From Candidatus Parcubacteria bacterium (GTDB taxonomy: Bacteria; Patescibacteriota; Patescibacteriia; CAIXNZ01), in contig JAPLYG010000009.1 of assembly GCA_026395685.1 (NCBI GenBank), forward strand, positions 17,519-81,518: a stretch of DNA of 64,000 bases, written 5' to 3'. Below are positions 1 through 64,000 of this stretch, in pieces. Both the position numbers and the translations under genes were made by a program. Below the pieces are notes generated by a model. That model had not been told where the DNA came from. It ran no database searches and saw only the letters and a list, made by a program, of their open reading frames with translations. Numbering within the stretch: position 1 is the first letter of the stretch; each line of letters starts with the position of its first letter.

Positions 1-76
1 AATAAAACGATAATTATGGCAAACAATAAATAAAACATACGGAGTTCAATTTAATAAATATTTCTAAATATCAAAT

Positions 77-982: not shown

Positions 983-1014
983 ACTGCTAAAATTTATTGT
1001 TAGTATATTAAGCT

Positions 1015-3555
1015 CTAAATATCAAACTTTTTATAAATATATTTTTTTACAAATTCAACCATTAGAAAATAAATAATAGCGATACCAACGATTGCCAAGG
1101 CTTGCCAATAATTTAATAAACCAAAATTAAAATAGTTACGCAAGCCGGTAAATAATACTAATATCACTAAAACTGTAGTGATCAAAGTGGCATAGCTCAA
1201 GGCCTTACTGGGTTTGCTTTGCCAAAACCATTTTTTTGTTCTGATTACAAAAATTAAAAGAACTTCTGTCAAATAAGACTGCCAAAACCAGCCTGACTGA
1301 AAAACTGTCATAGGCGCATTGATAATAAAAATCAAGAAACCAAAAGTCACATAATCCATTACTGAAGATAATAAACCGAAATAGTTCATTGATTGCTTAA
1401 TTTTTTTAATATCCCATTGCTTCGGCTTTTTAATATATTCTTCATCCACCTCATCACTCGCGATGGCAAGCATAGGCATATCACTGAAAAAATTCAACAG
1501 AATAATTTGCACCGGCAGCATAGGGATGAAGGGCAAAAACAAAGAAGCGCCGACCACCGTAAACATGTTCCCATAATTCGAACTGATCGTACATAAAATA
1601 TATTTCAAAGTATTACCAAATGTTTTGCGGCCTTCTTTAATGCCGTAAATTAAAACATTCAAGCTCTTTTTCAATAAAATCACATCGGCTGCTTCTTTTG
1701 CCACATCAACTGCCCCTTCAACCGAGATTCCCACATCAGCGGCGCGCAAAGCCGGCGCATCATTGACTCCGTCGCCCAAAAAAGCGACATTGTGTCCAGA
1801 GGCTTTCAGTGCTTTAACAATTTTTAATTTATGCTCAGGCGTAACTTTGACGAAAACATCTATTCCATAAACAATCTTTTGCAGTCTTTCATCGCTCATT
1901 TTTTCAATTTCAGAACCCACAACTAATTTTGAATATTTATAATTTATTTCTTCTGCCAAACGCTTGGCCGCCATTTCATTATCTCCTGTTAAAATTTTAA
2001 CACTCACTCCCAAATCATTGAAGATACGAATCGATTCGGCCGCAGTTTTTTTCGGCGGATCAATAAAAACTAAGGCTCCTAATAAAACCATCTTGTTTTC
2101 ATCAGCTACCTTATACTTTGCCCGGGTATCAATTTCCTTTTGGGCGAGCAAAATTATGCGAAAACCGACTGATTCCAAATTTTCAATTTTATCCTTAACT
2201 TTAGCCAGGTGACCAGCTAAATTTTCAATTTTATTATCAACTAAAATTGAGCTGCAGATCTTAAGCATCTCTGCCGACGCGCCTTTGCAGATTAATTCCC
2301 TGCCGCCATTTTTGGATACAATGACGCTCATGCGACGTCGATAAAAATCAAAGGGTATATTCTCAACAATCTTATAGCCATTGTGTTTTTTAAGATTCTT
2401 TTGGGCATAATCAATAATTGCCTTATCCAAGGGATTAGCCGCAGAATTTTTATCAATGGCGTAGCTATTGCACAAACTACCTAAAAATAAGATGTTTTCA
2501 TTTTTTTGACCGTCAAAGTCAAAAAAATCTTTGAGCTCAATTTTGCCTTCAGTCAGAGTTCCGGTTTTATCGGTACAAAGCACATCAGCATTCCCCAAAT
2601 TTTCAATTGCCATTAATCGCTTGACCACCACTTGATTTTTGGCCATCAAGCGTGCGCCGCGTGAAAGATTAATTGTAATGATAATGGGCAATAATTCCGG
2701 GGAAATGCCAACTGCAATAGCCAGAGAAAAAAGCAAAGCTTCCAGCCAATTTCCCTTGAACAAAGCTAAAATCAAAAAAACAGCGAAAGAAAAGAAAATT
2801 ATTATTTTAAACAAAAAATAACCGAACTGAGAAATACCCCTTTGGAATTCCGAAGGTGATTCCACCTCGGTCAATAATTTGGCTGTCTGTCCTAAAAAAG
2901 TATCTTTGCCAATAGCCGCAACAATAGCTTTACCGCTACCCTGAACCACATGACTGCCGGCAAAAACAAGATTAGGCGCGTCTAAAAGCTGCTTGCGAGC
3001 ATTAACAGGCTCAGAATTTTTTTCTACGGGGAAAGCTTCACCGCTCAAAATAGCCTGATTGACCGCTAAATCATGGGACTCGACTAATCGCAAATCAGCG
3101 GGAATAATAGAGCTGGACTGCAAAAGAACAACGTCCCCGACCACCAGATCAGTCGTCACTATCTTTCTGGGTTTACCATCACGGATTACTGTTGACTGCA
3201 AAGCGACTTTATTTTTTAGAGTCTCAATAATCTTGGCTGAATTATATTCCTGGATAAAAGCTAAAATAGCCGATACAAAAACCATAACGAAAATTATGGT
3301 TGCGGAAACATATTCTCCCAAAAAGCCTGAAATTAGAGTGGCAATTAACAAAATAAGGATCAACGGATTTTTAAATTGGGAAATAAAAATTTCCAAAGCA
3401 TTAAATCTTCTTTCACCGCTTAACACATTTAAGCCGTAAAGCTTTTGGCGTTTTTTTACTTCAAGCGAAGTTAAACCCTCAGCATTTGATTTCAAAACAC
3501 GATAAATATCTTCGGGTTTAAAATCAATATATTTTAGGAGGTCATTGTTTGACAT
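1015..3555 (-). CDS. P-type cation-transporting ATPase (MgtA-like)
   Basis: Phosphorylation motif CTDKTGTLT, hinge motif GDGVNDAPAL, TGDN motif, 8-10 TM segments, 846 aa. Confidence 0.85.
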   Translation of the reverse strand: MSNNDLLKYIDFKPEDIYRVLKSNAEGLTSLEVKKRQKLYGLNVLSGERRFNALEIFISQFKNPLILILLIATLISGFLGEYVSATIIFVMVFVSAILAFIQEYNSAKIIETLKNKVALQSTVIRDGKPRKIVTTDLVVGDVVLLQSSSIIPADLRLVESHDLAVNQAILSGEAFPVEKNSEPVNARKQLLDAPNLVFAGSHVVQGSGKAIVAAIGKDTFLGQTAKLLTEVESPSEFQRGISQFGYFLFKIIIFFSFAVFLILALFKGNWLEALLFSLAIAVGISPELLPIIITINLSRGARLMAKNQVVVKRLMAIENLGNADVLCTDKTGTLTEGKIELKDFFDFDGQKNENILFLGSLCNSYAIDKNSAANPLDKAIIDYAQKNLKKHNGYKIVENIPFDFYRRRMSVIVSKNGGRELICKGASAEMLKICSSILVDNKIENLAGHLAKVKDKIENLESVGFRIILLAQKEIDTRAKYKVADENKMVLLGALVFIDPPKKTAAESIRIFNDLGVSVKILTGDNEMAAKRLAEEINYKYSKLVVGSEIEKMSDERLQKIVYGIDVFVKVTPEHKLKIVKALKASGHNVAFLGDGVNDAPALRAADVGISVEGAVDVAKEAADVILLKKSLNVLIYGIKEGRKTFGNTLKYILCTISSNYGNMFTVVGASLFLPFIPMLPVQIILLNFFSDMPMLAIASDEVDEEYIKKPKQWDIKKIKQSMNYFGLLSSVMDYVTFGFLIFIINAPMTVFQSGWFWQSYLTEVLLIFVIRTKKWFWQSKPSKALSYATLITTVLVILVLFTGLRNYFNFGLLNYWQALAIVGIAIIYFLMVEFVKKYIYKKFDI

Positions 3556-3627
3556 ATATTATAGTATAACAAATTTTACGCAATAAAAAAAACAATCCCA
3601 CAGCGCGGGACTGTCTTTTATCTTTTG

Positions 3628-4434
3628 TTATTTGGCTAAGCTAAATGAAGCCCTGACTACGGCCGTTACCTTTTTATCAATAGACCCTGTGTCATAATAT
3701 CCGTAATCAGAAATATCAGTGGAATTAATAGCCGTTACCTGAAATACGCCGATACCCGCTGATTGTAATAAACCTATACTAGAATCAGTTGAAGCGGCAA
3801 TTTGTTCTGCTCGGGCCTTGGCATTAGCTGTAGCTTCAGCGATTAAATCCATTTTCAGATCGCCAAGTTTACTGTAATAATATTCCACTCCCTGGCTGGT
3901 AAAAATGATTCCCTGATCAATGAAATAGCCGGCTGCCTCCTGTGACAACTTATAAATACTTTCCACATCTGTTGACTGAATGATTATCCATTGCTGGAGT
4001 GTATAGCCGGAAAGACGATTGTCAACGCAACTTTTACTCCCGGAATCATAACCATAATTAACCTGACCTTCGCAAATCGGATTAATAGTCAGTGTTTGTA
4101 CCGCAATTTCACTATCTGTAATGCCTCTCTGTCTAAAAACCCTCAAAATAGTATCTAAATCCGTTTTCATCTGATTACTGCCTTCTTTTAAAGCCTCAGC
4201 TGAAACTGTCCGGGAAAAGCTGCTGCTCCATTTAACCGTATCTGATTTAACTATTTTTTCCGCCGAACCAGTAACCGCGATACTATTACTTAATGCTTTA
4301 ACCTTATAAAATGTTTCACTGACCCAAAAAGCGCTGGCAGCAATGGCCAGACTTAAAAAAATCATACCAATCATGACAAAAGCCCCTTTGGCTTTAGAAC
4401 AACAGCATGATTGATTGTTAGGTAATTGCTCCAT
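3628..4434 (-). CDS. SIMPL-domain (DUF541) protein, N-terminal TM anchor
   Basis: N-terminal hydrophobic segment then IAVTGSAEKIVKSDTVKWSSSF pattern typical of SIMPL/DUF541. Confidence 0.5.
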   Translation of the reverse strand: MEQLPNNQSCCCSKAKGAFVMIGMIFLSLAIAASAFWVSETFYKVKALSNSIAVTGSAEKIVKSDTVKWSSSFSRTVSAEALKEGSNQMKTDLDTILRVFRQRGITDSEIAVQTLTINPICEGQVNYGYDSGSKSCVDNRLSGYTLQQWIIIQSTDVESIYKLSQEAAGYFIDQGIIFTSQGVEYYYSKLGDLKMDLIAEATANAKARAEQIAASTDSSIGLLQSAGIGVFQVTAINSTDISDYGYYDTGSIDKKVTAVVRASFSLAK

Positions 4435-4445
4435 AATTATATTAA

Positions 4446-4904
4446 TTAAATATTAAAATTTCTTTTTAAAACTTCCCCAAAAATATCACCGCGGCTGATA
4501 ATGCCGACGATTTTCCCTTTTTCATCAACTACGGGCATACGATGAATTCCCTTAGCTACTAGTAAGGCTCCCGCCTTCATAATCAAGGTATCCGGCGAAA
4601 CAGTGACAATTTCCCGCGAAAAAAATTTTTCAATTTTATCATCCTTTATTTCACTGGCCTTGCTTTCCCTTGCCTCCGCATCACCATAAAGTTCCGGATT
4701 TTCATAATAACTCTTATAAAAAGGGTACAGAACCTTAAAAAGGTCTTTTTCCGTAATCATTCCGATTAATTTATTGTCATCGTCAACAATCGGCGCTCCG
4801 CTGATTTGCCTGTCATGCAAAATCTTGGCAACCTCATAATAAGTGGCGGTATGAGGAATAGTAATAACATCCTTTTTCATTATATTTTTAACGATCATAG
4901 ACAT
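4446..4904 (-). CDS. CBS domain-pair protein
   Basis: Two CBS-like repeats (ISGAPIVDDDNKLIGMITEKDLF; HRMPVVDEKGKIVGIISRGDIF). Confidence 0.7.
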   Translation of the reverse strand: MSMIVKNIMKKDVITIPHTATYYEVAKILHDRQISGAPIVDDDNKLIGMITEKDLFKVLYPFYKSYYENPELYGDAEARESKASEIKDDKIEKFFSREIVTVSPDTLIMKAGALLVAKGIHRMPVVDEKGKIVGIISRGDIFGEVLKRNFNI

Positions 4905-4981
4905 TATAAATTAAGAATTATACCTGGATTAACTGTATCAAATTAAATGATTAAGACCAAGAGCTGTCAAGAGGTGCCATT

Positions 4982-51853: not shown

Positions 51854-52417
51854 TTAAATCATCTTTATCTCTGTTTCCTTTTCCTCGGCAATCTCGTCTG
51901 CTTTTTTATTCAATTCCGAGACATAATTATCCAAATCAGCCAGATACTGATAACGGTCATCCTGAGTAATATCCTTGTCCTTTTCTGCTTTTAATATTGC
52001 CTCCTTTGTTTTATCGCGAATCTGGCGAATGCCTATTTTTGCCGCTTCCAATTTTTGGCCTGAGACCTTGATTAATTCTTTGCGATTTTCTTCAGTCATC
52101 ATCGGCACCTTGGCAATTATCTTGCTGCCGGCATTTACCACTGACAGCCCCAGATTAGACGCGATTAATGACTTTTCAATTTCTTTAACAATGCTTTTAT
52201 CCCAGGGTTCAATGCTGATTGCTCTTGATTCCGGAATACTGATTGAAGCCAATTGCTTCAAGACCTGCCGGCTGCCGTAAGCTTCCACTAGAATATTCTC
52301 AACCAAAGCAGACTGGGCGCGCCCGGTCCGCAAAGTTCCCAGTTCTTTTTTCAGATGAACCAGCGAATTTTCAAATTCTTCTTTATTTTGTTTGATGTAA
52401 TTGTTTAATTCTGGCAT
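51854..52417 (-). CDS. frr: ribosome recycling factor
   Basis: Conserved RRF core (LRTGRAQSALVENILVEAYG ... PMMTEENRKELIK). Confidence 0.9.
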   Translation of the reverse strand: MPELNNYIKQNKEEFENSLVHLKKELGTLRTGRAQSALVENILVEAYGSRQVLKQLASISIPESRAISIEPWDKSIVKEIEKSLIASNLGLSVVNAGSKIIAKVPMMTEENRKELIKVSGQKLEAAKIGIRQIRDKTKEAILKAEKDKDITQDDRYQYLADLDNYVSELNKKADEIAEEKETEIKMI

Positions 52418-52449
52418 AATTTTATGTTGGGTTATTAACCGAGTATTAA

Positions 52450-53547
52450 TTATTTCTCGGGGATCTTCTTTGCTCCCAAATAGATATTTTTAGTATTTTT
52501 CGGATCGACCAATAAAAAATTTACATAACCGACATTGGGCGCTTTTTGAGTTGACCAGGTACTGCCCCCGTCTGCAGATTTATATACGGTTGAATCCGTA
52601 CCATAATAAATTAAATTGCCATTTGTCGGATCGACAGCGAGTGAATATATATTCTTGCCGCCGACAGTGGTGACTAAATTAATTGGTTTCCAGGTCTGCG
52701 CGCCGTCAATTGTCCTTAAAAGGCCATAGTCGGAAACATAAATAAAAGCATTAGAAGCTGAAAGGTCCTGAACCATTAAACGCGCATTCTTAAAATTCTT
52801 ATAAAGCTTGGCTCCGTCTTTATTTATCGACTCGGTTTTTTTATCAGTATCACTCCAGGTTACACCCCCGTCAATTGACTTGGCAATACCGGCTTTTTCA
52901 ATCAACAAGTAAATATTTCTGGTATCTTCAGCATTTAAAAGTATTTGCTTAATGGCATTGCCCGAACCTCTAATTAATGTCCAAGTCCCCCCGAAATTCT
53001 CACTTTTTCTTAATTCGCCGCCGCTATTGGCAAAATATACCAGATTCTGATTACCTGCATAGCGATCTGTTTCAATATCTGTAATCTTTATTGCCCTGGA
53101 ATCATTATAGATGGTGGTAAAAGTACGTCCGCAGTCAGTACTTTTGGACAGATTAGCGCCGACTGTAATATAGAGAGTGCATTTATCCTGATAATCAATA
53201 GCAATATCGGCAATATTATCATTTTCAAAAAATTTTGATTTCATCCAGCTGTTGCCGGCGTCATTGGAATAATACCACCCCTGTTCCGAAGCCAAATAAA
53301 CCGTGTTATTATCTGACGGATCCAAAATAAGACGATTTACACTGACATTCACCAAAGGTATAACTTTACCCTGGGTATTTAATAGACTGCCTTTTAATTT
53401 CCAGGTTACAGCATTATCTTCTGATTTAAAAACCCCGATATACCCCTTTGGTGTCTTGGAAGAATCTTTGACACTGATACAGCCGCTTAATGATACGGCT
53501 AAAATTGCCAGACAAAAAATAAAAATTATTTTTTGGAATTTCCCCAT
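52450..53547 (-). CDS. BNR/Asp-box repeat beta-propeller lipoprotein (Ycf48/sialidase-like)
   Basis: Lipobox-like LSGC; at least seven S-x-D-x-G-x-T-W/F Asp-box repeats. Confidence 0.7.
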   Translation of the reverse strand: MGKFQKIIFIFCLAILAVSLSGCISVKDSSKTPKGYIGVFKSEDNAVTWKLKGSLLNTQGKVIPLVNVSVNRLILDPSDNNTVYLASEQGWYYSNDAGNSWMKSKFFENDNIADIAIDYQDKCTLYITVGANLSKSTDCGRTFTTIYNDSRAIKITDIETDRYAGNQNLVYFANSGGELRKSENFGGTWTLIRGSGNAIKQILLNAEDTRNIYLLIEKAGIAKSIDGGVTWSDTDKKTESINKDGAKLYKNFKNARLMVQDLSASNAFIYVSDYGLLRTIDGAQTWKPINLVTTVGGKNIYSLAVDPTNGNLIYYGTDSTVYKSADGGSTWSTQKAPNVGYVNFLLVDPKNTKNIYLGAKKIPEK

Positions 53548-53551
53548 AAAA

Positions 53552-54622
53552 TTACAAATTTATTAATAAATTTTCCGCTGCTAAACGCGGATTAATATTA
53601 TAAGTTAAATATTTTTTCAGCAAATTAACCTGGGCAAAAAGATCCAGCAGCTTATTAAAGTCATAGCGCAAAGAAACTTTTTTAAGCTGGGGCAAATAAT
53701 GCAGATTTATAATTAAATTATCGAGATTCTGGCGGGCAGCCAATAAATCATGAAGAATCAACTGCCAATTATCCAATTCTCCGGCCAGAATATTTGCCGA
53801 TTCCTTGGGATTTTTGGTTTGAGCAAAAACCTGTTCAATATTTTTAAAGCGGGAAACCAAATCCTGATCAAATAAGGAGACCAGCCGGTCCATCTGCTCT
53901 AAATATTCATCAAAAAAATCAGGATGCTGAAAATAGCTGATGGCTAGGCCGATTTGTCCCCTTGCCAGGGCAGTGAACTTTTCAGCCTGGCTGCGGCTCG
54001 AGCCCAAAGAAACTAAGTGATGAAAAATTTCATCGGCTGCCAACGGCTGAAATTTAATCAATTGACAGCGGGAAGCAATGGTCGGCAGGATTAAATTGGA
54101 ATCAGTGGTAATCAAAATTAATATTGTTTTCGGGCCAGGCTCCTCTAATATTTTCAATAACGCATTTTGGGCGCTTTCACTCAAGTCCTGGGCATTTTCA
54201 ACCAGCGCAAATTTGTAGGAGTTTAAAAACGAAGTCAGGTTTAAGAATTTATGCATTTCCCTTACCTGTTCCACACTGATATTTTTCTTATCTTCTTCCT
54301 TTTTTAAAATATAAATATCAGGATGAATATTTTTTTTTGCCTGTTGGCAGAAAGCGCATTGTCCGCAGGGGCTACTCTGCAAAGGCAACTTATTTTGCTG
54401 ATGGAAATCTTGGCATAAAATTGAGCTGATAAGCTTTTGCCCCACCAGTGATCTGCCTAAATGTTCCAAGCCAGAAAACAAGTAAGCATGGGCCAGTTTA
54501 TTGTTATTAAGGCTTTTTTGCAAATATTGCTGTATTTTTGAGTGGCCGACAACCTGCCAATTATAATTATTCATGACTTTATTATAGCTTAATCGCCGGT
54601 CTTCGTAAAGGCTTAAAAACAA
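53552..54622 (-). CDS. holB: DNA polymerase III delta-prime subunit (HolB)
   Basis: AAA+ fold with degenerate Walker A, zinc module CGQCAFCQ, Walker B-like ILIITT. Confidence 0.8.
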   Translation of the reverse strand: MFLSLYEDRRLSYNKVMNNYNWQVVGHSKIQQYLQKSLNNNKLAHAYLFSGLEHLGRSLVGQKLISSILCQDFHQQNKLPLQSSPCGQCAFCQQAKKNIHPDIYILKKEEDKKNISVEQVREMHKFLNLTSFLNSYKFALVENAQDLSESAQNALLKILEEPGPKTILILITTDSNLILPTIASRCQLIKFQPLAADEIFHHLVSLGSSRSQAEKFTALARGQIGLAISYFQHPDFFDEYLEQMDRLVSLFDQDLVSRFKNIEQVFAQTKNPKESANILAGELDNWQLILHDLLAARQNLDNLIINLHYLPQLKKVSLRYDFNKLLDLFAQVNLLKKYLTYNINPRLAAENLLINL

Positions 54623-54772
54623 GGCTAAAGGCTTAAGACTAAAGGCTAAAGGCTAAAGTTTAAAGGCTAAAGTATGGTAATTACAAATTTTCCTAAATTT
54701 AGACTTAACAAAAAAAACGCCCTAAATTAGGGCTTAATGAGTTCTAAGTTAATTATTTTATATAAAACCGAA

Positions 54773-55189
54773 TTATTTAGATTCCTGCTCCTTAATATAT
54801 CTTCTAATTCTATTAATCTCAAATCCCACAGTAGAAACAGCATAGCCCCTGGCCCAGAAATGTTCGCCGATAAAATTCCTTTCCTTGCCGCAAAACTGCC
54901 TGGCAATCAAAATAGCGCTTTTGCCTTTCAAATACCCGACAATTGAGGCCACCGCATACTTGGGCGGTATTTCAATGCACATATGCACATGATCCGGCAT
55001 AATATGGCCTTCAATTATCCTGCAACCTTTATATTTAGCCAATTCATGGAATATCCCGCCAAGCTGGAGCTTAATTTTTCCATAGAGAATGCTTTTGCGC
55101 CGTTGAGGAATAAAAATCAGATGATAAACGCAATCCCACCTGCTGTGGCACAAGCTTTGATAATTATGCATGTGATAATTTCCCTTCAC
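54773..55189 (-). mobile_element. tnpA: IS200/IS605-family transposase TnpA (HUH Y1), no tnpB
   Basis: 138 aa; HUH motif HVHM and catalytic Tyr region YAVSTVG; hairpin terminators on both flanks. Confidence 0.85.
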
Positions 55190-55280
55190 TCATCAAGCCT
55201 GAAGGAATTATAACCGATTTCTATGCATTAATTCAAAAAAACGCTGTCAAGCGTTTTTCAGAAGATATCTTATCAATATA

Positions 55281-55586
55281 TTAAGCATTCAGCTTCAAAT
55301 GATCTAGAACCTTTTTTAATGAAGACTCCAAACGGTCATATTTTGAGCGCAATGAAACCAATTCCAAGTCTAACTTTTGATGCAATCCGATAAATGAATC
55401 AATATGGGTTATTGTCTCATCTTTATTTTCCCTCATTTCATCCCTAACCTCTTTTAATTCTCCCCTTATTTCTCTAATATCATCCTTGGAAGCAAAATTC
55501 TTCAGATCATCCTTCGTCGGCGCAGTATCTTTAATAAAAGAGACTATCTCTAAAATATCGTTTAAATTTTTATCTTGATTATTCAT
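55281..55586 (-). CDS. hypothetical coiled-coil protein
   Basis: 101-aa charged ORF. Confidence 0.4.
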   Translation of the reverse strand: MNNQDKNLNDILEIVSFIKDTAPTKDDLKNFASKDDIREIRGELKEVRDEMRENKDETITHIDSFIGLHQKLDLELVSLRSKYDRLESSLKKVLDHLKLNA

Positions 55587-55728
55587 AAATTCAATATTAT
55601 TTTGTGTCTTTATTATAGCTTTATTGACGCTTCCCTGTCAAATACAAACTTTAAGCGATAATTACCGCCCAAAGGAACGCTCAAAGCTTATCAAGTCTCC
55701 CCAGCTAAAGCTGGGGGTTTTCCTATTT

Positions 55729-56556
55729 TTAATAAGCACCATAGGTTTCCAAGTCCATATTCCCGTTGTTGTCGTAGCTGACATCCACGCCTAAATCAGT
55801 GAAGTCCGTGACGGCATGTGGATTTGCGTACAAACTTCCTGTATTGCCATTATATTCATAATCCCCGACATCCGATTTATTCAGGATATTTCCGAGACTG
55901 TCATAGTTGTAAGTTTGCGTATAATCATCCTCCGTCGCCGAATCCGTTATCGTCGCGCCTGTCAGACGATACAAGTCATCATAAGCATAGGCGGCATTTT
56001 TTCGGGTATTTGTTTCAGATTGATCAATAATGCCAGTAATATTTCCAACATCGTCGTAAGTATATGCCAAATCCTGTATTCTCTTTCCGGCCATGACAAA
56101 ATAATCGTTTCCATTAGTCCATTCTCCTTCATTGTCCGACTCATCCCATAACTTAATTCTCCAATTATATTTCATCCCATTCAAAGCCAGCGGATCACCG
56201 CCATAAGAAATGTCTTCAGTGCGGTCGCCTTCAAGCACAGAGGTGGCAAAGGCGGTTTTTTCGCTATCCCAAAGAGGATCATTCCAATCGCCATCGTAAG
56301 GAATAACCTGTATTTGATAATAGTCGGCGTAATCCCCTGTATCAGGATCATCATAAATCGCTGAAAATTCAGGCGTAGTGTCAGAAATTTTGGTCGCCTG
56401 CTGCGGCCAGAGGCGCACCTGGTCCAGCTTAATCCAGCTTGTTTCCTCACCCAAATAGAAAATCAAACGAGCGTCGGATTCAGTCACATTCGGAGTCAGC
56501 TCAATCTGGAATTTGGCAAATTCGCTGATTGAATTGCATGCGGAATCAATTTTCAT
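55729..56556 (-). pseudogene. orphan 5'- and 3'-truncated near-duplicate of an internal segment (CBM end + YD repeats) of the giant toxin gene
   Basis: Protein nearly identical to the giant protein from ...EFAKFQIELTPNVTESDARLIFYLGEETSWIKLDQVRLWPQQATKISDTTPE to ...VSYDNNGNMD; DNA near-identical by eye to ~58510-59300. Confidence 0.75.
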
Positions 56557-56697
56557 AAATACTAATTCTCAAATGGACTACTTTAATTAATGACTTCATA
56601 GCCAAAATTAGGGTTAGTTTTCTTTAGCTCATTCAAAAAATCAAAAAATTATCTATATATTTTTTAAATACCAAATTTTGAATCTTTTTATAATTTT

Positions 56698-56868
56698 TCA
56701 ATTCGAAAAATACATTTTCATCGCTATAACTATATGCATCAAAAAAGCATCCAAGTTTTTGCCATAACCAATTATCAAGCTGGATAAATTCAATTTTCTT
56801 TCCAAGTAACTATTTAATTCGACGGCTGTATTAATTTTACCAAAATCAAAAATAATAGTTTTTTTCAT
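56698..56868 (-). CDS. unannotated 56-aa ORF (MKKTIIFDFGKINTAVELNSYLERKLNLSSLIIGYGKNLDAFLMHIVIAMKMYFSN)
   Basis: Hand translation; below ORF-track cutoff; sits between the immunity candidate and the orphan fragment. Confidence 0.25.
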   Translation of the reverse strand: MKKTIIFDFGKINTAVELNSYLERKLNLSSLIIGYGKNLDAFLMHIVIAMKMYFSN

Positions 56869-56897
56869 AAATTTCTACTTAATTCTTTCCAGATTGA

Positions 56898-57272
56898 CTA
56901 GTATAAACAATATTCCTTTGTTTCATAATAAGGCAGCTCCTTTATCGGAGCCCCCGGTAAAATTCTATCAACATAAGCATTATTAAATTTAACAAGCTCG
57001 GCTTTGAATATTTTATTGTCCTTTATATAAACTAAACCTTCAGAAAAGTCGTTTGTTCTAAAGAATAAAATTACTCCGCCTCTATATTCGCAGGTAATTA
57101 TTTCATTGGACTCCGCAAAATTGATAGCGCCAACCCTTCCTTTAAAATAATTAATCGCCGCTGGCGAATCGACTTTATGCATAGTGTTATAATCCCAAAA
57201 CCATATTAAATAAATGATTGCCAAAAGCAGGGAAATACTTATGAGGATTATTTTTCGATACTTTTTATTCAT
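56898..57272 (-). CDS. putative cognate immunity protein (N-terminal TM anchor, 124 aa)
   Basis: Starts 18 nt after the stop of the toxin gene, co-oriented; no known domain. Confidence 0.45.
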   Translation of the reverse strand: MNKKYRKIILISISLLLAIIYLIWFWDYNTMHKVDSPAAINYFKGRVGAINFAESNEIITCEYRGGVILFFRTNDFSEGLVYIKDNKIFKAELVKFNNAYVDRILPGAPIKELPYYETKEYCLY

Positions 57273-57289
57273 AATTTTTATATATTAAA

Positions 57290-60200
57290 TTAGTCTAAAT
57301 TAAGCGATCCTACTTTCTGTACATTTTCTATTGAATTATTACTGTTCAGGAAATCCGATAATGAGGCATTAGGATTTTCTTTTAGTAATTGACCAAATTG
57401 TGCGCCGAGCTGATTAGCTTGAATATCATTGAAATCATATTTTTCCCGTCCAGATGTAAAAATAATTTCCCAGTTTTCAACTAAATTACCAAGAACATTT
57501 ACAGTTTCTGGCCCAAACATATAAGATAACAAGGCAGAGGCAAAAAAATGCTGTAATTTATCTGTATTATCCAAAAAAGTATCAGTAGTATATTGTCCAA
57601 ATAATCCGCTAGGCAAATCGAAAATCCTCTCTTTCCTATCTTTGTTATTTACATCAGCACTGTTAAAACTTGTCCTCGTAGCTTCCATCATAACATATAA
57701 TGTTTCCTCTGTATTTCCACCTGTTAAATTATTAGCATAATTATAAATCTTATTCAAGCCTTGTATATTACTATCGCCAGATTGCATGTTTAAATTATTC
57801 TTCACGAAATTATTTGTTAAACTTACATTCAAAATTGTGAAAATTCCCACTGGCCCCTCACCTGTTGGATCTACATAAACAAAGGGCCTATTGGCCACAT
57901 AACTATATGAATTCAAACTCTGCGGATCTATTAAAATATCAAATGATTTTTTACCATACTTCTTTCTCAAATCTGTTCCCATATCCAAAAACATCGGATC
58001 CTCGCTCACAAACCTCCCCGCTTCCCCGCTATAATACCTCGCCCCAAAGTACTGCAATCCCGACGAGTCGGTTTCAATTTCCTTTTGGGTGAATTTTTTC
58101 CTTTGGTCAAAAGACCCGTTTTCAGGATCGCTTTGTTCGTTAAAGCGCATATTGCCAAATGGATAGTAATCAACTACCTGCTCAACATCCCCGTCATCCT
58201 TAGTCATGACACTGCTTGATGTCAAATGGTCGTCATGGACATAATATTCATTGCGATTTGTTCCGTCGTCTGTGATCGTCAGCACAAGCTGGTTATTGGC
58301 GTAAACATTTTCAGTAATTGTCTCATCCTCGCCGACAATCTTTTTATCAAAGTATTTATTGGGATAAACAATAATTTCGCTTCCAGAATCAATGTCCTTG
58401 ATTATCCTTTGTCCAGCATGATCGTAACCATAACTTGCAGGAGTTGCCCAAATTCCGTCGCTTGTCGCCATTCGGTTATTATAATCCCAATCCGCCTCAA
58501 AAACAGTATAAGCTCCGAGTGTTTCCGCATCCATATTGCCATTATTATCATAACTCACCTCCACACCTAAATCCGTGAAATCCGTAACAGCATGCGGGTT
58601 TGCGTATAAGCTTCCTGTATTCCCGTTGTACTCGTAGTCCCCGACATCTGATTTTGACAGGATATTGCCTAAGCTGTCATAAGTAAATGTCTGCGTGTAG
58701 TCATCCTCCGTCGCCGAATCCGTAATCGTCGCTGAAGTTAATCTGTATAAATCATCATATGCATAAGCGGCATTCTTTCGGGTATTTGTTTCAGATTGAT
58801 CAACAATTTCAGTAATATTGCCCACATCATCGTAAGTATAAGCTAAATCCTGAATACGCTTTCCCGCCATCACGAAATAATCATTCCCATTCGTCCACTC
58901 GCCCTCATTATCCGATTCATCCCACAGTTTAATTCTCCAGTAATACTTCATCCCATCTAGCATTAAAGCATCCCCGCCATAGCTGATATCCTCGGATCTA
59001 TCTCCTTCATCTACTGAATTTGTGAAAGCAGTCTTGCCGGAATCCCAAATCGGATCATTCCAATTACCGTCATACTTAATCACTTGGATTTGATAATCAG
59101 TTGCGGAATCCCCAGTATCAGGATCATCATAAATCGCTGATAATTCAGGAGTAGTGTCAGAAATCTTAGTCGCCTGCTGGGGCCACAATCGCACCTGATC
59201 CAGCTTGATCCAGCTTGTTTCCTCACCCAAATAGAAAATCAGCCGAGCGTCGGATTCCGTTACATTCGGAGTCAGCTCAATCTGGAATTTGGCAAATTCA
59301 CCGTTATTCCAGACAGTGTCAAATGGCACGACTGAACTTATCTCACTAAAGGGGTTGTAATTCAGGGTTATGGCTGCTCGGGCTGTCCTGGGATCGTAAT
59401 TCTCTGAATGGGCGTAAAATGTAAGAATATAGGTTTGGTCTTCAACAACTGAAATCGGCTGGGCAAGAGACACTTCCCAGTATCCTCCGCCGGTTGTCAC
59501 AGTTACTTTGTCGCAGGAATTGCCATCATAAGACTCGGTATCGTCAATCGCATTGGTTCCCGTTCCGTCCGGATAACCTTTACTGGTGAAGTACCAGGTA
59601 TTGCCCCAGTTTTCAAAGCTCGGATCGGTTATCATGTTCAGATCATCAGGAGTCAAGGAAACATCATCAATCCAGTATGTTCCCGCATTGTCGCCCAGAT
59701 GGAAAGTAATAATGGAATTTTCATCATCAACCGCAACTGTGAAAGTATAGGAGTATTCCTGCCAATCAGTTCCGGCTTCTATTGTTCTGTAAATGCCCTG
59801 CTGGGTCCAGGGTGAATGGTTTTGGTAAGCCTGAATGAAAAATTCTGTTGCGGTTGAAGCCTTGGCCCAGAATTTCCAGGTGTAATTTTTGCCGGCAAGC
59901 AATTTGACCGACTGGCCCACATGCACTTCCCAGGGCTCGCCTGTTGTGGATACAATCACTTTTTCCGAACATGATCCGCTGTGCGATACTGTGCAGTCTT
60001 CAGTATGCGTCGCATCCAGCTCATTCTGCCAGTTCCAGCTGTCAAATCCGTCCTCAAAGCCGGAATTGTACAGGATATTCGCGCTTTTCCATAAATCTTC
60101 GGACAGCAGGTCTGTTGATGGATCAGGAGGATTGACGCTTAAAAGCATATTTTCGCCCAGGCTTTCTTTTTGTTTTTCCAGAAAATCAATCATTCCCTGG

Positions 60201-63200
60201 GGCAAGTATTTTAATTCAGGCTCTTTTTGAGATTCTTTCGCCTTATCAAACATTTCAATTGCTTCTTTGGGCAAAGGTTCGGGTTTGACATTGGGATCGT
60301 ATTTAACATAAATTGTTTCGTCTTTAGGATAGTTGTCATAGCGGACAGGACGGCCCAGAAAGTCGCGCTTAACCTTGTTTGCGGATTTTTCATTACTGCT
60401 TGCCTCCTTGATATCCGTAGATCCGTAGCCAATCTGTAGATTAGTAACAATATCAACGCCAGGCAGAGTTTCCAGAAAACCGCCGACTGCCTGACCAACA
60501 GAAGCTAACGGATTGCCAATAAGGGTTGCGGGTGTACTGGATTCTTCGTCCCGCGCCGCGGGACTCTGAATGACAGTGGGTGGTGCGGCAATCAAGGATT
60601 CTTCGTCCCGCTCCGCGGGACTCTGAATGACAGAGGAGGTCGCCATCATCAATCCTTCGCCGTAGTCGCCCTCATCAGGACTTGCCGTTATTTTCTCTTT
60701 CAAACGATACAGCTTGGCCTCGTCATAGTCATTGAATGTTTTCACTCCATTGGCGTTTTCCTGGTACGCGACCTGCTCCAAAGGCGAATAATCATAATCG
60801 CTCACAATATCGCTAAACGACTCTTCGCCATCAGGCTTGCTCTGCACTTTTTCCAAAAGACCTGCAGTATTGTAAACATACTGAACTTCATCGTCATTGG
60901 GATAGGTAATCAAAATCTGGTTTCCCTGGCGATCATAGCCATACTCGGTCAAATAATTCGTAGAATCAATATTTTTATTCTCGGTCTTAACCCCGCCTAA
61001 AGCATTGTAAGTATAAGTTGTCACAACATCAGCTGTTGTCGCCGTGTACAATCTGCCAATCCCGTCAGTGCCGGTGTCATAAACATAAGCCACTTCGGTT
61101 CCGCTTTGGCCCGTGTAATTCTCGGTTAAAACGCGGTTGATGTCGTCATACGACCAGTTGACTGTCTGGTTTTTCGGATCTACGCGCGAAGTTAAATTTC
61201 CCGAATCATCATAGCCGTATGTCCATTCGCCGAAAGTCTCGTCTTCAGGATCATGCAAATCTTCGGCTGTGAGCCTCCTGCCAAGTCCGTCATAAGTGAA
61301 ATTGCGAATATTGTCCTGCGAATCTTCAATTTGAGTTAAATTGCCCAAGCCATTATAGGCGTAATTTGTGGTATAAGTATTAGCGCCATTATGTTCGTCA
61401 ACCTGGATTAAATTGTCATAAGCGTCCTTGTACAAATCCTTGACATTGCTTTCCGCGTCAGTAATCGTCAGTTTCCAGTCATCATAGGTATTGGTCGTTG
61501 TTCCAACCGCGTTGGTCGCTGTTAAAACCCTTTGCAAGGGATCATAAGTGTAGGAAGTATATAACGCCGTATCAGTGGTCGCCGTTGTCTGAGCTGAACC
61601 TGTGGAAAAGTACGGCAAAGATTCCTTGTCTAAAAGACCAACGTCATTGTAAGCGTAATCTTTGGCTGAATAAGTATTTGAAGCCTCAGACTCTTTACGC
61701 TCCTGAATTTTCCTGCCAAATCCGTCAAGATAAGTGTAAATATCAAAACTGGTTGAAGAATCAAGATTATTTGTCTGCTGAACTTTGGTTGGCACAGTGT
61801 TATCGGTATAAGTGTATTCTGTTTTAATAACCAAAGTGCTCGGAGTAGACAGATAAGGCTGTTTTTCCTGCTTTACCCTATCCAAAGCGTCATAGACCGT
61901 CTGGAATACCCGGCTGTTGGGATCAGTCACTTGCGTCGGCTTACCCAAAGAATAATCATATTCATAATCCGTATCCTGGTCTAAAGCATTTGTTACTGTG
62001 GCAGGATATAAATTATATGTGTCATAAGTATAATCAGTTGTCTTGTCCTGCGGATCTTTTTCTTGAGTTACTAATCCGTACGCATTATATGTTTTTTCAA
62101 TATCAATATAGCTTGTGCCTGACTTCCACATTTCCTGCTTTGTTAAATTGCCTTCGTCAACATTGCCCAAAGTTAAACTATCATAATAATATTTAGTTTC
62201 TTTAACTTTATTGGAACTCTGGTCAATTGTAGTTTCCTGGCTGGGCAAGCCAATAACATCACTGCCGGTAGTGGCGGCATAATCAATGTCAGTAGTATAT
62301 TTATCAGACCCCGTATCCGTGAATGTTCCATTTGAATTGCCGGAAACTTCGCCCCAGGTTATTTTCTGGGTCAGATTGCCGTTATCATTGTCATATGCAT
62401 AAGTCTCGGCCGTGTCCTTATGGCTGGTATTCCCGTCAAAAGCAAAGCCGATTGTCTGGGTCTGCTTCACAAAGTCCCTGTCATCACCCAAATCGTAATT
62501 TTCCCATTTATTGACGCTAAAACGGAAAAGATTGGCGCTGTCATCATAGATTTCCGTGCGGTACGGCTTGCCGATTTTTGACGCGTCATCCAAATACTCG
62601 CCGTTGCCAGTATCAGTACCATTGCCCTGATGGAAAAAAGTCATAGCTACATTGCCGTCTCCATCAACTTTGGCAATCTGATTAAAGCCTGCGAATTTGC
62701 GGTTCAGATAGTCTTCATAATAATAATCCCCGCCGACATAAAAATACGATTCAGATGAGAGATTATCAAAACTGTCGTTGTATTCAATATAGTTTACTGT
62801 CTGGACAGCAAAAGGCAGGTCAGGATTTTGCAAACTGTCATTTTCAATATATTGTGGCGAGGCTTTATAGGTTACGCTAAACTCTCCGCCTTTGGCATTG
62901 GTTGATTCGGAAAGTAAGTCGGCTTTAAACCCCATATTCAACACGACCCCGCCACCTATAGTCGGAGGTGGGTTACTATTTTTATAACCATATATAATAT
63001 CGGGCAAACTATCTCCATTAATGTCTGAAATATGTACACCATTACCATTGCTATTATTGAGAACTCCTCCGAACAGAGGGATATAACTTGTATTCTGTTG
63101 TAACCATCCGTGCCCTGTATTTATAAATACTCTATGTATACCTGGGGAAGAAAGATAAAGTGATTGGACTAAATCGGTCAGGCCATCCCCATTTACATCA

Positions 63201-64000
63201 GCCGCACGAACACCATTATCAATCGGATAAGCATACCAGTCTGCCCAATCCTCATAAAAAATAACTGGAGCTATTAAATTTTCATCCTCTATCCAACCTC
63301 CGTTACCGTCATTAATATATGTGGCCTGCTCAATCCGATCCAATTCCGGATGTTCATACATTGCGTGCCAATACCAAGAACGCATGACATCCTCTAAACC
63401 ATCTCCGTTAAAATCCGCAATAATTGTCCCACTTCTTAAATCAGCTGGCGGGACTAGATTTGTTTGGATTGCCCATGTATTATCGCCATTGTTTAGTGAA
63501 ACTGATCCTGAAATTGGATCATCGGGCTGCCAACCTGTTGGTTTATATCCTTGAATAATATCTGGCAGACCATCTCCATTTATTTCCGCAAAAAATGTCC
63601 CATGAGATAACAATGATTGTGCACTGCCAAAAGTAGGTATATAATCAATATTTTGCATTGACCAGCCAGTACCTGTATTAAAATATATTTTATGGATACT
63701 TGATGGCGAAGCACCTAAAGACTGGACCAAATCAGTTAAGCCGTCACCATTAACATCAGCCGCCCTAACTCCATTATCATATGGCCAGCCATTCCAGACT
63801 TCATCATAATAAAAAATTAGAGGCGGAGCTAATTCTTCACTTTCAATCCAACCGCCATGTCCGTCATTAAGATATGTTGCAATCTCATCAGGATCTTCAT
63901 TCTGAGGACTATATGATCTTAAAATGTCAGGCAAACCATCGCCATTAACATCGGCTACAATTACACCCTTGCGTAAATCACAAGGTGGATACCAGTCTTC
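57290..64000 (-). CDS. giant polymorphic-toxin-like surface protein (FG-GAP-like repeats, YD/RHS repeats, two CBM4/9-like modules, RHS core ending NSYSYVANRPFVYVDPTGE, ~210-aa unclassified C-terminal domain). N-terminus lies beyond the window edge
   Basis: Repeated DVNGDGLxD, many YxYDxxGNL YD repeats, GFEDGFDSWNWQ and DPSFENWGNTWYF CBM-like starts. The reading frame stays open through 63935-64000. Confidence 0.85.
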   Translation of the reverse strand, partial: EDWYPPCDLRKGVIVADVNGDGLPDILRSYSPQNEDPDEIATYLNDGHGGWIESEELAPPLIFYYDEVWNGWPYDNGVRAADVNGDGLTDLVQSLGASPSSIHKIYFNTGTGWSMQNIDYIPTFGSAQSLLSHGTFFAEINGDGLPDIIQGYKPTGWQPDDPISGSVSLNNGDNTWAIQTNLVPPADLRSGTIIADFNGDGLEDVMRSWYWHAMYEHPELDRIEQATYINDGNGGWIEDENLIAPVIFYEDWADWYAYPIDNGVRAADVNGDGLTDLVQSLYLSSPGIHRVFINTGHGWLQQNTSYIPLFGGVLNNSNGNGVHISDINGDSLPDIIYGYKNSNPPPTIGGGVVLNMGFKADLLSESTNAKGGEFSVTYKASPQYIENDSLQNPDLPFAVQTVNYIEYNDSFDNLSSESYFYVGGDYYYEDYLNRKFAGFNQIAKVDGDGNVAMTFFHQGNGTDTGNGEYLDDASKIGKPYRTEIYDDSANLFRFSVNKWENYDLGDDRDFVKQTQTIGFAFDGNTSHKDTAETYAYDNDNGNLTQKITWGEVSGNSNGTFTDTGSDKYTTDIDYAATTGSDVIGLPSQETTIDQSSNKVKETKYYYDSLTLGNVDEGNLTKQEMWKSGTSYIDIEKTYNAYGLVTQEKDPQDKTTDYTYDTYNLYPATVTNALDQDTDYEYDYSLGKPTQVTDPNSRVFQTVYDALDRVKQEKQPYLSTPSTLVIKTEYTYTDNTVPTKVQQTNNLDSSTSFDIYTYLDGFGRKIQERKESEASNTYSAKDYAYNDVGLLDKESLPYFSTGSAQTTATTDTALYTSYTYDPLQRVLTATNAVGTTTNTYDDWKLTITDAESNVKDLYKDAYDNLIQVDEHNGANTYTTNYAYNGLGNLTQIEDSQDNIRNFTYDGLGRRLTAEDLHDPEDETFGEWTYGYDDSGNLTSRVDPKNQTVNWSYDDINRVLTENYTGQSGTEVAYVYDTGTDGIGRLYTATTADVVTTYTYNALGGVKTENKNIDSTNYLTEYGYDRQGNQILITYPNDDEVQYVYNTAGLLEKVQSKPDGEESFSDIVSDYDYSPLEQVAYQENANGVKTFNDYDEAKLYRLKEKITASPDEGDYGEGLMMATSSVIQSPAERDEESLIAAPPTVIQSPAARDEESSTPATLIGNPLASVGQAVGGFLETLPGVDIVTNLQIGYGSTDIKEASSNEKSANKVKRDFLGRPVRYDNYPKDETIYVKYDPNVKPEPLPKEAIEMFDKAKESQKEPELKYLPQGMIDFLEKQKESLGENMLLSVNPPDPSTDLLSEDLWKSANILYNSGFEDGFDSWNWQNELDATHTEDCTVSHSGSCSEKVIVSTTGEPWEVHVGQSVKLLAGKNYTWKFWAKASTATEFFIQAYQNHSPWTQQGIYRTIEAGTDWQEYSYTFTVAVDDENSIITFHLGDNAGTYWIDDVSLTPDDLNMITDPSFENWGNTWYFTSKGYPDGTGTNAIDDTESYDGNSCDKVTVTTGGGYWEVSLAQPISVVEDQTYILTFYAHSENYDPRTARAAITLNYNPFSEISSVVPFDTVWNNGEFAKFQIELTPNVTESDARLIFYLGEETSWIKLDQVRLWPQQATKISDTTPELSAIYDDPDTGDSATDYQIQVIKYDGNWNDPIWDSGKTAFTNSVDEGDRSEDISYGGDALMLDGMKYYWRIKLWDESDNEGEWTNGNDYFVMAGKRIQDLAYTYDDVGNITEIVDQSETNTRKNAAYAYDDLYRLTSATITDSATEDDYTQTFTYDSLGNILSKSDVGDYEYNGNTGSLYANPHAVTDFTDLGVEVSYDNNGNMDAETLGAYTVFEADWDYNNRMATSDGIWATPASYGYDHAGQRIIKDIDSGSEIIVYPNKYFDKKIVGEDETITENVYANNQLVLTITDDGTNRNEYYVHDDHLTSSSVMTKDDGDVEQVVDYYPFGNMRFNEQSDPENGSFDQRKKFTQKEIETDSSGLQYFGARYYSGEAGRFVSEDPMFLDMGTDLRKKYGKKSFDILIDPQSLNSYSYVANRPFVYVDPTGEGPVGIFTILNVSLTNNFVKNNLNMQSGDSNIQGLNKIYNYANNLTGGNTEETLYVMMEATRTSFNSADVNNKDRKERIFDLPSGLFGQYTTDTFLDNTDKLQHFFASALLSYMFGPETVNVLGNLVENWEIIFTSGREKYDFNDIQANQLGAQFGQLLKENPNASLSDFLNSNNSIENVQKVGSLNLD

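Follow-up and report, generated by a model that had tools for sequence, protein, structure and literature searches.

RHS toxins whose tip belongs to the Lipocone superfamily were previously catalogued for the Min-Wnt, CapCone-1, CapCone-2, prok-SAA, VanZ-1, prok-TelC and ClaspCone-2 families, with counts of the RHS fusions in the accompanying network file (Burroughs, Nicastro & Aravind, eLife 2025, PMC12419801). They combine an RHS shell and core with a soluble tip, in which a histidine of helix H2, a glutamate of H3 and an aspartate of H4 make up the active site, and with a membrane-anchored immunity protein. Here we describe a locus of the same organization in a stretch of 64,000 nucleotides from a Candidatus Parcubacteria bacterium (contig JAPLYG010000009.1 of assembly GCA_026395685.1, positions 17,519 to 81,518; this whole stretch is the window, and all positions are given in its numbering). 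The locus differs from the catalogued toxins in that its tip is assigned, from sequence comparisons, to ClaspCone-3, the sister family of ClaspCone-2 (profile-profile E 1.1e-24 in the source data of PMC12419801), in that the bacterium belongs to the Candidate Phyla Radiation (CPR) and is not a Gram-negative bearing a type VI secretion system (T6SS), and in that its immunity candidate matches no listed immunity family by sequence. We think it likely that the locus encodes a polymorphic RHS toxin whose ClaspCone-3 tip cleaves lipid-linked wall precursors and is neutralized by the product of the open reading frame (ORF) downstream.

Two characterized Lipocone proteins are the closest guides to what such a tip may do. 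TelC of Streptococcus intermedius, the partner of TipC, is an LXG toxin of the type VII secretion system (T7SS) that acts as a phosphatase on lipid II (Whitney et al., 2017, in the summary of PMC12419801); it splits lipid II at the bond joining undecaprenol to the diphosphate, and its toxicity requires that it act from outside the cytoplasm (PMC12419801, sections 7 and 29). The tip of the window would share with TelC its nature as a Lipocone toxin, the attack on a lipid-linked wall precursor from outside the cytoplasm and a membrane-associated, extracytoplasmic immunity protein, whereas TelC represents another family of the same clade and is delivered by the LXG/T7SS route and not in an RHS shell. 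Neither by sequence nor by fold did the tip match TelC. YfiM of Escherichia coli (DUF2279) is, like VanZ/Llp1, a Ca2+-dependent pyrophosphatase of lipid-linked oligosaccharides; the substitutions K28A, H31A, E72A and D91A nearly or completely abolish the activity, and overexpression of the protein leads to osmotic lysis under hypotonic conditions (bioRxiv 10.64898/2026.09.16.752124). K28, H31, E72 and D87 of YfiM are identical to K100, H103, E127 and D144 of the tip. In contrast to YfiM, a small housekeeping membrane lipoprotein, the tip is soluble, carries the two-helix insert of the ClaspCone families and has an asparagine in place of D91.

For the shell, the best matches among solved structures are the TcB-TcC cocoons (YenB/YenC2, TccC) and the T6SS Rhs effectors RhsA (7q97) and Tse5 (8cp6), which share with the protein of the window a YD-repeat shell and an Rhs core with the aspartyl autoproteolysis motif; TcB also shares the FG-GAP-type propeller N-terminal to the shell. 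In contrast to all of these, the shell of the window carries an insertion of about 600 amino acids (aa), and no TcA, SpvB, PAAR or VgrG element was seen in the window. A TcB-TcC fusion was considered and not adopted, the TcdB_toxin_midN match being weak (3e-07), caused by the FG-GAP motif and with no stretch passing the threshold alone, and no TcA-like gene being present in 52000-64000. WapA of Bacillus subtilis is a Sec-exported, wall-associated RHS toxin of a single-membrane bacterium, with a tRNase tip and a cytoplasmic immunity protein. It resembles the locus described here in being an RHS toxin of a bacterium that has no T6SS, in its surface-binding modules at the N-terminus and in the immunity gene that follows it, whereas the tip of the window is predicted to act outside the membrane and its immunity protein to be membrane-anchored.

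The RHS gene and the family of its tip

The toxin gene and the ORF that follows it comprise these features:

57290..64000, minus strand: 5'-truncated RHS polymorphic-toxin gene (uninterrupted frame of 2236 codons plus stop; domain matches)
62951..64000, minus strand: FG-GAP/VCBS beta-propeller-type repeats, aa 1-350 (Pfam profiles and five DxNGDGL motifs)
60677..62950, minus strand: N-terminal part of the RHS/YD shell and, before it, an unassigned region, aa about 351-1108 (RHS_repeat, YD_repeat_2x)
58859..60676, minus strand: insertion of about 600 aa, aa 1109-1714 (CBM_4_9, Ig_Rha78A_N; alignment of the insert-deleted shell)
59684-60082, minus strand: first CBM_4_9 module (Pfam)
about 59216-59653, minus strand: second CBM_4_9 module (Pfam)
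58889-59173, minus strand: Ig_Rha78A_N-like domain, aa 1610-1704 (Pfam, 3.2e-07)
57857..58858, minus strand: C-terminal shell part, in which the Rhs-associated core lies (TIGR03696; alignment with YenC2)
57293..57856, minus strand: toxin tip of 188 aa, aa 2049-2236, assigned to the ClaspCone-3 Lipocone domain (HMMER relatives, hhalign with YfiM, published family list)
56898..57272, minus strand: immunity candidate of 124 aa, with a membrane anchor at aa 8-26 and about 95 aa predicted outside the cell (position, hydrophobicity)

The minus-strand frame runs from 64000 to the TAA at 57290-57292 with no other stop, and the N-terminus of the protein therefore lies outside the window, as an initial annotation made from the letters of the DNA alone had stated for a protein of at least 2200 residues. 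The FG-GAP modules, YD/RHS repeats, two carbohydrate-binding module (CBM) segments and RHS core ending in DPTGE that it described were all recovered by searches of Pfam and NCBIfam, with matches to profiles of both the RHS/YD kind (RHS_repeat, 1.1e-23, in Pfam; YD_repeat_2x, 3e-09, in NCBIfam) and the FG-GAP kind (FG-GAP_3, 1.9e-21, in six stretches, and FG-GAP, 6.3e-16, both in Pfam and within aa 1-350). A motif scan counted five D[VIF]NGD[GS]L motifs in the FG-GAP part. In the N-terminal part of the shell, aa 735-823 match DUF6443 weakly and aa 814-1026 align with residues 479-685 of Tse5 (8cp6) in the search of solved structures; beyond the inserted block, aa 1711-2011 align with residues 324-673, the second half of the YenC2 shell. 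The relatives of the giant protein in the PDB are YenC2, TccC2, RhsA and Tse5. The Rhs-associated core (TIGR03696 in NCBIfam) lies at aa 1945-2047 (57860-58168), with 48.1 bits versus a cutoff of 32.5, and closes with the motif NSYSYVANRPFVYVDPTGE, whose last residue is aa 2048; PFVYVDPTGE at its end is the predicted autoproteolysis site. The protein thus shows the marks of an RHS toxin: a long YD/RHS array, a core with PxxxxDPxG and, directly after the core, a variable C-terminal domain that has no relation to the shell.

The residues behind DPTGE, which had been counted at about 210 and described as an unclassified domain, form a tip of 188 aa that HMMER, phmmer and hhalign comparisons place in the published ClaspCone-3 family. 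No credible match to the tip was found in Pfam, NCBIfam, PADLOC, a sequence search of the PDB or a word-indexed search of 5.8 billion proteins. An exhaustive HMMER search of 1.84 billion cluster representatives returned 79 relatives at E <= 1e-3 (best 1.6e-13), and every one of the 79 has a DKxxH motif. In alignments of 39-80 sequences D99, K100, H103, E127 and D144 (tip numbering, here and below) are invariant, and P82, F104, G123, D141, G151 and F154 nearly so; the family motif reads LP...D-x-DKLQHFFxSAxLxY ... G..VExxE ... DxRDxxANxxGxxFG ... PS. D99, K100, H103, E127, E130, D144, N148 and G151 are the residues that we predict to form the active site. Over the tip region no family member has a Pfam domain; the only families matched by more than one member were DUF2279 (5 of 80, weak, best 5e-05) and VanZ (2 of 80, weak), every other unrelated family being matched by a single member among the 80. 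It was the DUF2279 and VanZ matches that pointed to the Lipocone superfamily (PMC12419801).

Two of the HMMER matches, MBI4352443.1 (P0002) and MBI3292706.1 (P0007), are in the ClaspCone-3 source file of that paper, and in a phmmer comparison with the file they score 70.6 bits (2e-22) and 57.5 bits, respectively, against the tip. Twelve sequences unique to the ClaspCone-3 list fall below 1e-9, and among those shared with the ClaspCone-2 list none exceeds 13.7 bits. The file itself (ClaspCone-3.tsv in the supplement of PMC12419801) also holds the accessions of ClaspCone-2.tsv, with longer boundaries, and the two sets need separating when they are used as a family definition. When the family profile was aligned with E. 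coli YfiM by hhalign (probability 82%, E 1e-5), D27, K28, H31, E72, D87, D91 and G94 of YfiM fell on D99, K100, H103, E127, D144, N148 and G151 of the tip. Moreover, the signatures of the clade, as given in section 12 of PMC12419801, are a DK (or xD) four positions before the histidine of H2, an asparagine four positions after the aspartate of H4 with a small residue before it, a glycine capping H4 and a two-helix insert before H2. The first three are present in the tip as D99-K100-L-Q-H103, D144-I-Q-A147-N148 and G151. Together these comparisons place the tip in the ClaspCone-3 family (Burroughs et al., eLife 2025), an assignment made at the level of sequence.

The initial annotation had proposed structure prediction and a fold search for the same residues. 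AlphaFold2, given 121 sequences, modelled the tip as an all-helical domain (mean pLDDT 73.8, pTM 0.74; low confidence in loop 65-95), with helices at 3-21, 30-44, 49-65, 94-114, 116-133, 142-160 and 166-185. Helices 30-44 and 49-65 correspond to the two-helix insert before H2 and have pLDDT values of 88-94; H103, E127 and D144 sit on the three consecutive predicted helices 94-114, 116-133 and 142-160. Fold searches of the PDB returned nothing specific and did not retrieve TelC, and similarity in fold to TelC or PTDSS1 was not found. The tip is predicted to be soluble, with a mean Kyte-Doolittle value of -0.40, near the range of -0.72 to -0.45 given in PMC12419801. An all-helical domain of which the first helix (GPVGIFTILNVSL) is fairly hydrophobic might instead kill without catalysis, its helices entering the membrane to form pores or disrupt it. 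The hydrophobicity of the whole tip is low, however, with a maximum of 1.1 in any 19-residue window, and polar residues (D, K, H, E, D), which match the catalytic residues of YfiM, occupy the invariant positions; we regard insertion as extremely improbable, and a catalytic tip as the reading to be followed.

Immunity candidate, relatives and proposed activity

The ORF at 56898-57272 has the position and topology expected of an immunity gene for such a tip. Its ATG begins 17 nucleotides (nt) after the toxin stop codon, one less than first reported, and the membrane anchor and the position that had been described for it stood up: there is one strongly hydrophobic segment, aa 8-26 (Kyte-Doolittle 2.65), with K/R residues before it. 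The sole database match of the product is the protein itself, NTZ49_02480, a 'hypothetical protein' that is 100% identical and comes from a Candidatus Parcubacteria bacterium metagenome-assembled genome (MAG); this identity agrees with the reduced-genome-like setting that had been suspected. The GC content of the sequence background is 38.6%. A small ORF with an N-terminal membrane anchor lies 10-38 nt downstream in four of four RHS-linked ClaspCone-3 loci. In one of these, a membrane-anchored ORF whose product begins MKKYSAFILILIPILLILIW... starts 18 nt after the stop of the toxin gene (P0004), and in two others (P0001 and P0008) the toxin is followed by membrane-anchored PDZ-like proteins that are 35% identical to each other and unrelated to the ORF of the window. 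All known or predicted immunity proteins of Lipocone toxins are membrane-anchored or lipoproteins, which indicates neutralization outside the cytoplasm (PMC12419801, section 30). By analogy of position and topology, the ORF of the window fits this pattern as an immunity candidate. The view taken in the initial annotation is supported: a CPR/Parcubacteria genome encodes a polymorphic RHS toxin whose tip is variable and whose membrane-anchored immunity candidate occupies the classic position.

Most ClaspCone-3 relatives are secreted proteins of about 215 aa from Ignavibacteria-type bacteria. In the four Ignavibacteria contigs (L001-L004) the domain is stand-alone, in a protein of about 205-230 aa with a signal peptide and with no obvious immunity gene beside it; three of these genes are preceded by a Peptidase_MA_2 gene and followed by that of a sigma-54 response regulator, and one comes after an AMMECR1/MEMO-like gene. 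Exact look-ups of proteins of the window and exact DNA scans in collections of genomes and metagenomes, aimed at the missing N-terminus, gave no match, and protein-pattern scans gave one Ignavibacteria locus only and no RHS relatives. A minority of the relatives stand in conflict-type architectures. In three proteins (P0001, P0004 and P0008) the domain follows an Rhs core, and one of them (P0004) has the same layout as the protein of the window, with Ig-like, RHS and core parts; in another (P0002) it ends a large Peptidase_C39-containing protein. In a related metagenomic contig, an array of orphan RHS tip cassettes (L006, positions 1-4220; ENA ERZ27258512 k141_186698) holds two barnase-type RNase tips, one of them with PT-TG, and one ClaspCone-3 tip, with a small ORF after each; each cassette starts with MSADPVFLxLGTD...DPxGE, the conserved core junction.

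Outside RHS proteins, the domain also follows a WXG100 domain in a protein (P0016) that has an FtsK/EccC-like ATPase and proteins of the FHA and vWA kinds encoded next to it. This gene, at 4001-4930 in two contigs (L007/L008; Logan SRR14610234 and SRR22038625), has the gene of an FHA protein on one side and that of a vWA+FHA protein on the other, with a multi-FtsK/EccC-like ATPase encoded upstream, and its layout resembles the Esx-linked 'esr' threat-sensing clusters known from Actinobacteria defending themselves against Patescibacteria (PMC13622651). AesB of the same anti-epibiont study is another kind of protein, with a glycine-rich disordered C-terminus, and no direct link with it is claimed.

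Such a distribution could also fit another role for the tip, that of a housekeeping-type enzyme remodelling the envelope or exopolysaccharide, carried on a large RHS/CBM surface adhesin and followed by an unrelated ORF. Most family members are indeed stand-alone secreted proteins in ordinary neighbourhoods, and ClaspCone-3 is assigned to exopolysaccharide metabolism in the paper that defines it (PMC12419801). Against this, the tip of the window follows a canonical Rhs core cleavage motif, the same tip is found in the orphan-cassette array beside barnase-type tips and on the WXG100 protein beside a T7SS-type ATPase, and a membrane-anchored ORF comes after all four RHS-linked copies. We consider a remodelling enzyme unlikely and a toxin tip with its own immunity protein the better account.

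As to the reaction, the positions essential in YfiM are conserved in the tip, save for the clade-typical change of D to N, and a phosphoesterase mechanism is therefore best supported. In the mechanism that we propose, the RHS shell would enclose the tip until its delivery, which may be contact-dependent; the Rhs core would cleave itself after DPTGE and release the soluble tip, which would attack a polyprenyl-diphosphate-linked wall precursor of the lipid II type on the outer face of the target membrane. By homology with TelC and YfiM/VanZ, the tip would most likely hydrolyse the phosphate or diphosphate link between the polyprenyl carrier and the glycan head group, and cleavage of the precursor would block wall synthesis in the target cell. 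The 124-aa protein, held in the membrane of the producer with its domain outside, would neutralize the tip there. We infer the encapsulation, the autoproteolysis and the substrate, and likewise that the tip is toxic, that the ORF confers immunity, how the protein would be secreted and which cell would be its target.

Several points weigh against this mechanism. To our knowledge CPR bacteria lack the T6SS, the usual deliverer of Rhs toxins, and the N-terminus of the protein, with any export signal, lies beyond position 64000. We know of no ClaspCone-3 protein with a known substrate and of no family member that has been assayed. The immunity candidate has no homologue besides itself, and its structure model is poor. 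Within the active site, N148 stands where YfiM has an essential aspartate, and the usual serine of the clade is replaced by D141: a serine three positions before the aspartate of H4, with an aromatic residue before it, occurs in 'most' families of the clade and is common, not defining (PMC12419801), but is absent from the tip, which has D141 there after the aromatic Y140. At this position most of the relatives have aspartate, and a minority, such as MBI4352443.1, have Y-S. Most members of the family are found in housekeeping neighbourhoods without an obvious immunity gene, from which it follows that the fold is not intrinsically a weapon. Finally, ClaspCone-3 is described in the defining paper as soluble and probably periplasmic and is labelled 'exopolysaccharide'; it is listed neither among the toxin tips nor among the RHS fusions (PMC12419801).

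The inserted block and the flanking relics

The initial annotation listed the CBM segments of the giant protein and overlooked that, with the adjoining Ig-like domain, they form an insertion in the RHS shell. When aa 1109-1714 were deleted in silico, residues 311-847 of the query aligned in one stretch with residues 727-1275 of the RhsA chain (7q97), across the artificial junction at 549/550; the two RHS parts are therefore one shell into which a block of about 600 aa is inserted. In order, the block consists of a low-complexity linker, about 140 aa with no match, the two CBM_4_9 modules (aa 1307-1439 and about 1455-1595; 2.9e-23 in Pfam for the two stretches together) and the Ig_Rha78A_N-like domain. 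Among solved structures, the CBMs are most closely related to that of laminarinase 16A (1gui, 1.4e-12). At the start of the insertion the linker contains a 57-nt tandem duplication (60511-60624, minus strand; 75% identical) that encodes VIQSPAxRDEES twice. The CBM/Ig block presumably points outward from the shell.

Downstream of the immunity candidate, four further features follow:

56580..56868, minus strand: barstar-like orphan immunity gene with two frameshifts (three-frame translation; weak Barstar match)
55729..56556, minus strand: remnant of a second RHS gene or allele, a 275-aa ORF (blastn; Ig_Rha78A_N and RHS_repeat matches)
55281..55586, minus strand: highly charged, coiled-coil-like 101-aa ORF between the RHS remnant and IS200 (weak, non-specific matches)
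54773..55189, minus strand: IS200/IS605-family Y1 transposase tnpA (Y1_Tnp)

The barstar-like gene had also been overlooked. Its annotatable part is a 56-aa ORF (56698-56868), beyond which, past T6 runs, the coding sequence goes on in two other frames. With the frames restored, the product of 95 aa scores 16.6 bits against Pfam Barstar (PF01337; E 0.0077), matching positions 3-78 of the 96 in the profile; the curated cutoff is 23.4, and the gene is called only 'barstar-like' because the score is under the cutoff and was obtained only after two frameshifts had been repaired by hand. It could be a real pseudogene or an error of the MAG assembly; by analogy with the array of orphan cassettes described above, the best reading is that of an immunity gene left over from a cassette of this kind.

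The copy of an internal toxin segment of about 800 bp that had been reported farther downstream is present (55732-56523, 792 bp), but it is not the near-duplicate first described. In blastn it is 80.2% identical to 58508-59299 over 797 nt, in frame and with sharp edges, and the proteins are 90% identical; the 3' edge of the homology is exactly the stop codon of the remnant. The segment corresponds to aa 1568-1830 of the main protein, where the second CBM ends and the Ig-like domain and the first YD repeats follow; Rhs core and toxin tip are both absent from it. A classical 'orphan', displaced as tip plus immunity gene, is thus ruled out, and what had been taken for an orphan toxin-gene piece is a remnant from the middle of a diverged paralogue or allele. 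The differences are mostly synonymous (substitutions per nonsynonymous site, dN, 0.075; per synonymous site, dS, 2.27; dN/dS about 0.03), and so point to a long divergence of two copies under purifying selection; on this pattern of substitutions, we take the remnant to derive from another functional RHS paralogue or allele and not from a recent duplication.

The 101-aa ORF is an uncertain member of the locus. The tnpA gene, correctly identified at the outset, matches Y1_Tnp (PF01797) with 120.8 bits (E 4.6e-35) over 120 of 121 profile positions, and no second IS200 copy was found in the window.

The barstar-like gene, the RHS remnant and IS200 can be regarded as relics of earlier cassettes. 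Base composition is in keeping with turnover: GC content is 0.317 in the tip, 0.325 in the immunity ORF and 0.232 in the barstar-like gene, and 0.41-0.46 in the RHS body and 0.389 +/- 0.02 in 22 neighbouring genes, and the low values of the tip and the immunity gene fit an exchanged cassette. Along the giant gene, GC at third codon positions changes from part to part: the FG-GAP repeats have 0.23-0.29, the shell and insertion 0.35-0.52 and the tip 0.26; the mean of the neighbouring genes is 0.39 +/- 0.03. These neighbours, among them holB, frr, tim and the gene of a dimeric-type glycyl-tRNA synthetase, are those of an ordinary chromosome. A 365-aa protein encoded beside holB (52450-53547, minus strand) matches the F510_1955 glycosylhydrolase and Ycf48-like (BNR propeller) profiles under the curated cutoff and is not part of the toxin locus.

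The frameshifted gene, the RHS fragment and IS200 on the flank could also mean that the whole locus is a decaying relic in which the giant gene no longer functions. The 2236 codons are nevertheless uninterrupted, with all catalytic and core motifs intact, and the comparison with the fragment points to strong purifying selection on the protein family (dN/dS about 0.03); decay of the toxin gene itself is very unlikely, and we continue to treat it as a functional toxin.

The same machine might serve to attack a host. A Parcubacteria cell attached to a host bacterium would bind host glycans by the CBM and FG-GAP modules and weaken or tap the host envelope by ClaspCone-3, and the role of the downstream ORF would be limited to shielding the membrane of the producer itself. 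The CPR/Parcubacteria origin of the MAG and the two glycan-binding CBM_4_9 modules displayed from the shell are in favour of this possibility, and Lipocone effectors, including patescibacterial giant proteins, have been proposed to act in predator-prey conflicts (PMC12419801, section 31). Conversely, orphan cassettes together with the remnant of a diverged paralogue are what diversifying competition among related strains usually leaves behind, and we can tie the CBMs to no particular host glycan. An attack on hosts is accordingly a possibility that we hold tentatively, next to the likely reading of a toxin and immunity module that cleaves lipid-linked wall precursors.

Implications for Lipocone toxins and CPR bacteria

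Within the searchable literature, ClaspCone-3 would be an eighth family of Lipocone toxin tips beside the seven catalogued, with four RHS-linked examples and one T7SS-linked example. The window itself is a modest extension: a known class gains a sister family, found here in a CPR bacterium and accompanied by a shell that carries a CBM/Ig block and by an immunity candidate free of homologues. A broader and rather doubtful view is that ClaspCone-3 is an unrecognised class of wall-precursor-cleaving weapon used on both sides of epibiont-host conflicts, by Parcubacteria in glycan-binding RHS cocoons that would bring it to host cells, and by Actinobacteria-type cells that would export it from Esx/T7SS loci wired to FHA/vWA threat sensors. 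If that were true, the CBM-decorated shell would be a new way of targeting an Rhs cocoon to the surface of a partner, independently of a secretion system.

In any event, the assignment of the tip gives a biochemical prediction, the Ca2+-dependent cleavage of polyprenyl-diphosphate-linked wall precursors, in which K100, H103, E127, D144 and N148 would take part. Little is understood of how CPR bacteria interact with other cells; they appear to possess RHS modules complete with toxin and immunity candidate, and with the usual signs of cassette turnover. If the tip is directed at hosts and not at relatives, the locus bears on how epibionts exploit their partners; otherwise the system is a very common one, and the locus an ordinary, well-formed case of it.

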